Shown here one piece after another: positions 6,015-49,100 of a DNA stretch of 61,503 nt. The translations under genes and the position numbers were made by a program. The stretch's first letter is position 1; every line of letters begins with the position of its first letter. Origin of the DNA: Candidatus Vogelbacteria bacterium RIFOXYD1_FULL_46_19 (GTDB lineage Bacteria; Patescibacteriota; Minisyncoccia; Phycocordibacterales; XYD1-FULL-46-19); the NCBI GenBank assembly GCA_001824825.1, contig MHTK01000004.1, positions 1-61,503 of the forward strand. Reading direction: 5' to 3'. The notes under the pieces are model-generated. The model was not told the DNA's origin and did no database searches. It worked only from the letters and a program-made list of their open reading frames with translations.

Positions 6015-6087
6015 GCCCTGTTAGCTCAGTTGGTAGAGCAGTCGCCTCTTAAGCGAACGGTCGCAGGTTCGAATCCTGCACGGGGCA
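6015..6087 (+). tRNA. tRNA-Lys(CTT)
   Basis: GCCCTGT/ACGGGGC acceptor, TCGC-CTCTTAA-GCGA anticodon arm, GGTTCGAATCC. Confidence 0.95.
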
Positions 6088-6120
6088 CAAAATAAAAACG
6101 CCGTTAGGCGTTTTTATTTT

Positions 6121-6426
6121 GTGCCCCGTGAGCAAGCCAACTGCTTGGCTTGCGGTCAGGATTCGAACACCGGAGTTATGTTTGGTAAGCTTGCCAAACA
6201 AACGAGGTGGTGCCCAGACCAAAGTGAGTGGCGACGAGCTTTGAGTCGCGGGAGAATCCTGCCCCTAACTGCTTTGGTCGTGTGCAGGATTCGAAGAGGC
6301 TAAACATATCGCAGTGATCCGCCTTTGGCGGAGAAACGAGATGTGAAGCCTGTACCGTTCCCGCCCGCCTGCCATCGCCTGCTGGCTTAGGCGCTGGCGG
6401 GCAGGTAGGGGGAGAATCCTGCACCA
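6121..6426 (+). repeat. Two tandem tRNA-anchored structured mini-elements (class B then class A) tailored to tRNA-Lys
   Basis: CAGGATTCGAA...GAGAATCCTG arms repeated twice around conserved cores. Confidence 0.85.
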
Positions 6427-39088: not shown

Positions 39089-39113
39089 AAAACACCCTTA
39101 CGGGTGTTTTTTG

Positions 39114-39186
39114 TGCTTGGGGGCGGGCTCGAACCGCCGACCCTTCGCTCTTCAGGCGAATGCTCTACCAACTGAGCTACCCAAGC
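39114..39186 (-). tRNA. tRNA-Phe(GAA)
   Basis: GCTTGGG/CCCAAGC acceptor, TTCGC-CTGAAGA-GCGAA, GGTTCGAGCCC. Confidence 0.93.
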
Positions 39187-48397: not shown

Positions 48398-48446
48398 ATC
48401 CACCCTATCAAAAAACCCCGCCTTAGGCGGAGTTTTTTGATTTTAT

Positions 48447-49024
48447 ATCTGTTGTCTATAAGCCGAATTCTGTACCAAGCATCACTTTCAATACTCTTAC
48501 TTGTCTCTCGAAAAATACTGAAAGTGATGCTCGGCGATGGCTATTTATCTGGGAGTACTGTTGCCAGTACCCTCTAGCGGCACAAACCGGTGACTAGCAC
48601 CGGAGTACGGCCTTGCACTTAGGTAAGGATTTAGCCGTTTCACCAATATGTTACCATATTGCTAATCCTTAAAAAGGATTCTCTCGCCTTTCAGCTCAAG
48701 CGTCTCTGCTCGCACCTCTACATTTGCATGCGACGGGTGTTACCCGCTACCCGGCTGCCCCTCACATGAAATAGTCTTATGAATTTTGTGAGCTAAGGTT
48801 GTCACCGAGTTTATAAAAAAGTTGGCTCGATTGAACAAACACAACTACACGGCTTAAACCTCATCTAGACTCACGAGACCATTTCATGTGAGGGGCAAGT
48901 GTTCGGACTTTCCTCCAAGCACCACTTTCAACCATCAAACTTAGACGAGCTTGATTATATGGTGATTAACTAAAATTCACCTTTAGCTGAAAGTGGTGCT
49001 CGGCAACCATCCGGCAACAGACTC
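48447..49024 (-). ncRNA. rnpB: RNase P RNA with large insertions
   Basis: Minus strand: GAGGAAAGTCC (P4 5'), GGTAAC in P8, GTGAAACGG, TGCAAG, ACAGAATTCGGCTTAT (P4 3'); P1 TCTGTTG/CAACAGA. Ends approximate. Confidence 0.92.
48757..48896. repeat. 140-bp insert with perfect 16-bp terminal inverted repeats inside rnpB
   Basis: GCCCCTCACATGAAAT ... ATTTCATGTGAGGGGC. Confidence 0.75.
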
Positions 49025-49100
49025 TCAAATTATACTACAAACTACAAACAAAAACAAGGGCTTCTGGCCCTGGTTTTTGCTCACAACCCGACGTCTCCTC

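Follow-up and report, generated by a model that had tools for sequence, protein, structure and literature searches.

A P19 stem that is probably a copy of the P3 stem in an expanded RNase P RNA of a Patescibacteria genome

The stretch of DNA analysed here (the window) comprises 61,503 nucleotides from Candidatus Vogelbacteria bacterium RIFOXYD1_FULL_46_19, an ultra-small groundwater member of the CPR/Patescibacteria whose genome (708 kb in 8 contigs, called G000 below) is 99% complete. The minus strand of the window carries an rnpB gene for the RNase P RNA, preceded by a TATAAT box and followed by a terminator-like hairpin. Its ends were placed by means of the P1 pairing, most of which was recovered in the minimum free energy (MFE) fold. 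Relatives have a tataat at the matching distance upstream of their own rnpB. The features along the gene are collected in Table 1.

Table 1. Features of the rnpB region, in window coordinates
Feature	Position	Strand	Basis and remarks
rnpB, ~574 nt	48448..49021	minus	RF00010 match and conserved core segments
Predicted -10 box TATAAT	49029..49034	minus	~8 nt upstream of P1
P1 5' strand TCTGTTG	49015..49021	minus	pairs with 48448-48454, by complementarity
P2 5' strand GATGGTT	49005..49011	minus	pairs with 48536-48542; P3 begins at the next base
P3	48915..49004	minus	17-bp stem 49003-48987/48931-48915 and a branched 55-nt distal part
P4 5' strand GGAAAGTCCGAAC	48901..48913	minus	nearly invariant, in 30/30 relatives
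P5.1-position hairpin	48756..48897	minus	~140 nt, between P5 and P7
P2 3' strand AGCCATC	48536..48542	minus	P19 hairpin begins at the next base
P19-position hairpin	48475..48535	minus	17-bp stem 48534-48518/48491-48475 and a 26-nt distal part
P4 3' strand ACAGAATTCGGCTTA	48459..48473	minus	sequence reading and Rfam alignment
Intrinsic-terminator-like hairpin, then a T run	48407..48441	minus	directly 3' of P1; 17-nt arms, 94% complementary

An Rfam scan of the window at the gathering cut-off returned no RNase P match. With a permissive E-value, the class A model RF00010 (RNaseP_bact_a) was matched at 54.4 bits (E 9e-16), short of its gathering cut-off of 100 bits and over positions 48449-48804 only. 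The model misplaces P1-P3 of this RNA, and the invariant P4 5' strand lies upstream of the match; this misalignment of the 5' third is due mainly to the ~140-nt hairpin that occupies the P5.1 position. A score under the gathering cut-off was also found for 12 of the 38 relatives that have an RF00010 match. Read from the sequence, the canonical core of the window gene is present in the proper order (GGAAAGTCCGAAC, AGAGGTGCGAGCAGAGACG, GTGAAACGGCTAAATCC, GCAAGGCCGT, GCCGCTAGAGG, CCCAGATAAAT, ACAGAATTCGGCTTA), with the conserved P4, J11/12, P15 and P18 segments, and the core segments from GGAAAGTCCGAAC to ACAGAATTCGGCTTA are common to 30 relatives and to the genome G006. The 5' part is collinear with the RNA of G006, the nearest relative with a full-length Rfam alignment (130 bits), and in that alignment the P2 5' strands of the two RNAs correspond.

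No second RF00010 match exists in this 99% complete genome. Its rnpA gene was found on contig C2 (PF00825, 65 bits), and a Pfam family search gave no match in the genome to PIN_5, which we take to be the family holding the protein-only HARP enzymes; the RNA gene should therefore be under selection and essential. From its sequence, the window rnpB looks like a single, functional RNase P RNA gene, with a catalytic core that appears intact. Its P1-P4 core, J11/12, P15 and P18 are collinear with those of type A RNAs (RF00010), and we class it as a type A derivative, a much expanded and diverged member of a known ribozyme family. RF00169, the SRP RNA model, was not detected in the genome even with E up to 1, and the SRP RNA of this 99% complete genome is probably too diverged for that model, as rnpB is for its own.

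RNase P RNAs of this kind have been met before in CPR bacteria. Passages of Lui, Nielsen and Arkin 2021 (PMC8172020) report RNase P RNAs scoring below the cut-off in 10 of 35 genomes, with extended and missing helices that called for manual refolding. The window rnpB resembles them in its score below the Rfam cut-off, its large extensions and its small genome. In these same passages the term 'P19' does not occur, and no helix is described as copied from another.

The hairpin at the P5.1 position has 27-nt arms that are 89% complementary, and it also forms in the MFE fold. According to a table in PMC2858038, type B RNA carries P5.1 at this very place, between P5 and P7. In type B RNAs P5.1 and P15.1 are joined by a kissing interaction, but nothing in the window rnpB shows such a contact. 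The hairpin has no second copy in the genome, and in a diverged strain recovered by another study (contig X6) 91 unrelated letters stand in its stead while the rest of rnpB is nearly unchanged. It is therefore regarded as a hypervariable expansion and not as a dispersed element.

The P3 and P19 helices of this RNA are nearly identical, as had been noticed in a sequence-only reading of the window. On the minus strand, the P3 arm GCCGAGCACCACTTTCAG (49004-48987) is paired with TTGAAAGTGGTGCTTGG (48931-48915), and the P19 arm GCCGAGCATCACTTTCAG (48535-48518) with TTGAAAGTGATGCTTGG (48491-48475). Each stem counts 17 bp, two G-U pairs included, and a G (G49004 and G48535) stands just before each of them. 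The sole difference between the two stems is one compensatory pair, C48996-G48922 in P3 versus U48527-A48482 in P19, exactly the C-G to T-A difference that the earlier reading had seen. The interiors, a branched one of 55 nt and one of 26 nt, are unrelated and could not be aligned.

The helix labels given in that reading proved right as well. P3 precedes the P4 5' strand; on the other side, the P2 3' strand AGCCATC is followed by the hairpin 48535-48475, a T and then ACAGAATTCGG. Both helices begin at the base after a P2 strand, which makes a P2-P3-P19 three-way junction. In the alignment to the Rfam class A model, the second hairpin was placed as an insert between model positions 335 and 336, that is, between the P2 3' and P4 3' strands. 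As for P3, the hairpin GCCGAGCAC...GTGCTCGG of G006 was aligned to the P3 of the model with maximal posterior probability, and its base, GCCGAGCAC/GTGCTYGG, is common to the P3 helices of the window and of G006. A large insertion likewise separates the P2 3' and P4 3' strands of the G006 RNA in the Rfam alignment.

Could this likeness be fortuitous, or produced by assembly? With up to 3 mismatches allowed, the 18-mer arm has 4 matches in the window, which are the four arms, where 0.07 are expected from shuffles. A local alignment of P3 with P19 scored 15, against a mean of 6.3 and a maximum of 10 in shuffled sequences, so that shuffling never reached the observed similarity, and a repeat search recovered both direct-repeat pairs together with all four inverted-repeat arm combinations. 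At the same tolerance the full 18-mer was found nowhere in the genome outside rnpB. For an assembly artefact speaks the general risk that repeats carry in metagenome assemblies; against it stand independent contigs, drawn from other samples and other studies, which are in agreement with the window. One of them (X3, from a different study) covers the whole rnpB with one difference, which lies outside the gene. The other, X6, comes from a third study and represents the diverged strain mentioned above; it has five substitutions over 48400-48760, one of them in the P19 loop, and both stems are unchanged. Since X3 and X6 keep both stems, the likeness is not the artefact of one assembly: the arrangement is real and predates the divergence of the X6 strain. 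Chance or artefact can be given practically no weight.

Because all four arm combinations are complementary, the two helices might also pair across. It had been proposed from the sequence that P3 and P19 strands could form an alternative fold, and that the repeats could favour deletion or circularisation; such a fold would amount to a regulatory or inactive conformer. The MFE fold (-240.4 kcal/mol, nearest-neighbour) contains both local hairpins, P2, the P5.1 hairpin, P8, P15 and P18. When both P3/P19 cross-pairings were enforced, the energy was -224.8 kcal/mol, about 15.6 kcal/mol worse than with the local hairpins. The local duplexes amount to -28.2 kcal/mol for P3 and -26.2 kcal/mol for P19, the cross duplexes to -21.5 kcal/mol (P3 5'/P19 3') and -25.6 kcal/mol (P19 5'/P3 3'). 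The weaker of these suffers from the compensatory change, which puts a C-A mismatch into it, hence the drop from -28.2 to -21.5 kcal/mol. Besides being costly, the cross-paired topology clashes with P2, and P3 is able to close long before P19 is transcribed; both helices are therefore read as local struts. As to deletion or circularisation, it is speculation, and the genome, which has a single rnpB, would lose the catalytic core of that gene if the repeats recombined. No P3/P19 repeat joint was present among the joints listed, from contigs that cannot show rare variants. A cross-paired conformer with a function, or repeats acting in deletion or circle formation, is very improbable.

Identity of this degree between P3 and P19 is not routine in relatives. 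The rnpB genes of 30 genomes, belonging either to the same family or to the same order, were extracted. A hairpin at the P19 position was present in about 22 of them, usually as a short GUCC...GGAU stem, and in none of the 30 did the P3/P19 similarity rise above shuffles (best scores 4-7). An all-against-all scan for internal repeats in 31 RNAs flagged only the window rnpB and that of G022. The latter (locus L009), an otherwise ordinary RNA of 218 bits, has hairpins at P5.1 and P15/16 that are near-copies of 24 nt; in type B RNAs, helices at P5.1 and P15.1 touch, and the G022 near-copies occupy the two corresponding positions. We also scanned a collection of genome contigs with the 17-mer arm. 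None of the roughly 80 matches listed lay inside an rnpB, and they fell in unrelated phyla; they were discarded as chance matches of a pattern too short for this collection.

Which of the two stems was there first? Among the RNAs sampled, the nearest by core match was that of G006, with 74% core identity, and a ranking of these RNAs by core similarity yielded no intermediate or sister lineage by which the copy could be dated. A pattern for the P3 base and its junction with P4 retrieved at least 80 metagenome contigs in which the base of the stem (8-9 pairs) stands at P3. The longer P3 stem CACCACTTT of the window resembles the P3 of L097, L104 and L115, where the long version GCCGAGCACCACTTTT stands at P3. 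At the P19 position these three RNAs have unrelated structures, namely a module of about 130 nt in L097, a short GUCCCGC stem in L104 and a GUCAAUUUUG stem in L115. Since the base stands at P3 in G006 and the long stem at P3 in L097, L104 and L115, P3 would be the resident helix and P19 the derived one, so the direction of copying would be from P3 to P19 and the U-A pair of P19 the derived state. The likeness of the long P3 stem to that of L097, L104 and L115 could itself be convergent or moved, and not orthologous.

Helix copies were then counted in related metagenomic RNAs, 47 of which, complete and non-redundant, were retained out of 80 metagenome contigs. The P3 base was the only criterion by which these contigs had been selected, so that how often a second copy occurs was not built into the set. 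In 14 of the 47 RNAs, an internal direct repeat exceeded every shuffle by more than 2 score units. Inspection by eye showed that the whole P3 arm of L115 (104 nt) recurs at P15/16, one 28-nt hairpin is present in three copies in L086 (at P3, P5.1 and P15/16) and also in L081 (at P3, P5.1 and P9), a 28-nt hairpin occurs four times within the single RNase P RNA of L063, and L043 and L095 have a copy at P19. Hairpin copies stand at P15/16 in L102, L104 and L097, and in L072 a different module of more than 60 nt is repeated at P9 and P19. Taken across the relatives, copies of the P3 hairpin occupy the P5.1, P9, P12-14, P15/16 or P19 positions.

The stem base being conserved, resemblance between hairpins might reflect a shared consensus. 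As a control, eight conserved base pairs were removed and the hairpin interiors compared: identity was 0.68 within an RNA versus 0.45 between RNAs, a difference that none of 1000 label permutations reached. Intragenic copying of helices is therefore recurrent in this part of the CPR. Set against L115, L086, L081, L063 and L102, the window rnpB is a partial case, in which only the 17-bp stem is shared and P19 is involved.

The module of about 130 nt seen at P19 in L097 stands at the same position in L016 (G006, ~1540-1660) and L037 (G020), and at P9 in L104 and L068. It is structured, with three hairpins (GCCAATTTTG...CAAAATTGAGCG...GCAAAATCGG). Over 9-11 nt its first loop is complementary to its third, and the two covary from lineage to lineage, which points to a kissing interaction.

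The sequence of the stem base is also met outside rnpB. In a loose scan of the genome, a 10-12-bp stem base, CCGAGCACCA(CC), was found to close hairpins on contigs C5, C6 and C1. On C5 (28565-28594; L243:966-995), 110 nt downstream of tmRNA, there is a 30-nt hairpin CCGAGCACCA...TGGTGCTTGG; its 11-nt arm, GCCGAGCACCA, is the very sequence with which the P3 arm of rnpB starts. On C6 (238243-238332; L244:1044-1133), CCGAGCACCACC/GGTGGTGCTCGG closes a 90-nt three-way-junction element, of which a second copy, 99% identical, is found at a contig end (C1:1-82). This element (~90-110 nt) lies in an intergenic gap, has homologues in G021 (86% identity) and G006 (84%), and combines a conserved core with a closing stem that covaries fully; it has no credible Rfam match.

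From such observations it could be imagined that a portable hairpin family of the Patescibacteria, CCGAGCACCAC.../...GTGGTGCTYGG, landed separately in P3 and in P19. The C5 hairpin and the C6 element are the sort of outside copies that this would require, and others were found in relatives. L104 has, 2.9 kb away from its rnpB, an intergenic hairpin (L104:6742-6783) built on the 15-bp stem of its own P3 (CCGAGCACCACTTTT); the 330-nt gap around it gave no Rfam match, and no tRNA lies close by. Of 41 related genomes, 9 contain hairpins with CCGAGCAY/RTGCTYGG as closing stem, compared with 1 hit in total for a reversed-pattern control, and several of them adjoin tRNA, tmRNA or 16S genes. In L042, a similar AGCACCACTTTT stem is present at P15/16 and absent from P3. 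However, between the outside copies and the rnpB arms only 10-12 nt are shared, a much poorer match than that of P3 with P19 over arms of 17-18 nt, and the full 18-mer is absent from the rest of the genome. Neither hairpin is flanked by target-site duplications or has terminal features, and the P3 base is resident at P3 in many lineages. With both rnpB strands masked, a search of the DNA flanking 110 loci (639 kb) gave only 3 places outside rnpB. Separate landings in P3 and P19 are in our opinion unlikely. A MITE or another dispersed palindromic repeat is a poor match as well: the 18-mer is found in rnpB only, flanking duplications are lacking, and the P5.1 hairpin is single-copy, although the shorter stem base is present at the other loci given above.

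Pushed further, the idea of a portable module would make CCGAGCACCAC.../...GTGGTGCTYGG a tiny non-autonomous mobile hairpin, or a dock for a CPR-specific RNA-binding factor. Such a module would seed or overwrite the P3, P5.1, P9, P12-14, P15/16 and P19 helices of RNase P RNA, and would also stand behind tmRNA and tRNAs, upstream of 16S, and at the closing stem of the three-way-junction RNA. We find this doubtful.

The stem also resembles the end of a tRNA. The 8 nt at the end of the tRNA-Leu(GAG) gene, CCGAGCAC, are those with which the P3 and P19 stems of rnpB begin, and the stem arm equals the 3' end of this tRNA followed by CCA (CCGAGC-A-CCA). When the 3'-terminal 8-mers of the other tRNAs were searched in the genome, no stray hairpins were found, the apparent ones being isoacceptors. 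There is therefore no general pool of orphan tRNA-end palindromes by which the stem could be explained and, as the end of tRNA-Leu(GAG) is the only one with stray hairpins, we treat the likeness as an unexplained resemblance. If it is not a coincidence, it would tie the hairpin module to the substrates of RNase P. Most of the 39 tRNA genes are without an encoded CCA and run into a palindrome of which the 3' end of the tRNA itself forms the 5' arm (examples are C2:31774-31895 and, in the window, 39113-39186 and 6015-6128).

Rather than sharing an origin, the two stems could share a ligand: the same protein or RNA partner would recognise both, and selection or ongoing homogenisation would keep them alike. 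The stem is indeed kept while the interiors vary, as a comparison of G000 with L097 and L104 shows, both stems are unchanged in the X6 strain though its P5.1 hairpin has been replaced, and further structured RNAs of the genome contain the stem base. But the stem is a regular Watson-Crick helix, in which no bulge or K-turn-like motif is visible from the sequence; one pair has already been altered in P19; and the copies of relatives occupy positions that differ from lineage to lineage. The C6 element is instructive here. In G006, where the P3 stem is present, the closing stem of the element reads CTTAGTTTT..., and in G021, with its unrelated P3, it reads CCGAGCACC; it covaries freely and therefore does not track the P3 of rnpB across genomes. 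A common ligand seems to us quite unlikely as the cause of the resemblance.

The reading that we favour, with a probability of roughly 0.7, is that copying within the gene produced the P19 stem as a paralogue of the P3 stem, and that both stems serve as local struts. Helix duplication or gene conversion had been suggested from the sequence alone; an identity far beyond chance, not routine in relatives (0/30) and recurrent in related RNAs makes it the best interpretation. In the scenario we envisage, the family already had a P19 hairpin, usually with the short GUCC...GGAU stem. In the present lineage this stem would have been replaced by the P3 stem, base and lineage-specific extension together, the copy being made after the P3 stem had lengthened. 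One pair of P19 would then have changed in a compensatory manner from C-G to U-A, probably through U-G, and the two hairpins would fold independently on either side of P2. The copying may have proceeded by template switching during replication, or by short-tract recombination between hairpins that share G-CC...GG-A ends.

As only the stems match and the interiors are unrelated, the copy should be an older or a partial one. A simple duplication of the whole hairpin is insufficient, and either an event limited to the stem or a later turnover of the tip is needed. Tips do turn over fast, as is seen from the P3 of the window compared with those of L097 and L104, and from the replacement of the P5.1 hairpin in X6. 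The compensatory pair indicates that pairing has been selected in each copy separately, each being kept as its own local helix. P3 and P19 are thus most likely interchangeable peripheral struts, and not functional sites that depend on their sequence; copying of the stem into P19 may have been neutral for catalysis.

Some properties of known RNase P RNAs bear on this. The P19 of type B RNA is counted among the flexible elements of the periphery, and the P2-P19 junction is part of the rigid, invariant core (PMC11779636). A core junction with a flexible P19 fits the tolerance of a replaced stem, provided that the junction is kept. Unlike the known type A and type B RNAs, the RNA of the window has a P19 stem that copies its P3 stem, a branched P3 of 90 nt and, at the place of P5.1, a hairpin about 140 nt long.

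STRRs are tandem heptamers dispersed genome-wide, and in a study devoted to them a repeat sequence was reportedly tolerated in a peripheral helix of an essential ribozyme gene. The window repeat differs from STRRs in that it consists of one helix of the same RNA, with a full arm that is absent from the rest of the genome. In the literature searched, we found no published description of helix self-copying in an RNase P RNA.

One consequence concerns annotation. Copies and insertions make CPR rnpB genes drop below Rfam cut-offs, so that they are missed by annotation and by checks of genome completeness. A covariance model specific to the CPR, allowing inserts at P3, P5.1, P9, P15/16 and P19, would remedy such misses.

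RNase P RNA consists of a conserved catalytic core and variable peripheral helices, and the origins of these helices have mostly been approached through deep comparisons. The window, together with the related metagenomic RNAs, shows the origin of a helix at short evolutionary range: one helix of a ribozyme is reused as raw material for another, a compensatory change keeps the helix, and the tip diverges. A comparable growth has been proposed for the expansion segments of ribosomal RNA. Growth by self-copying would be a concrete route to larger structured RNAs.
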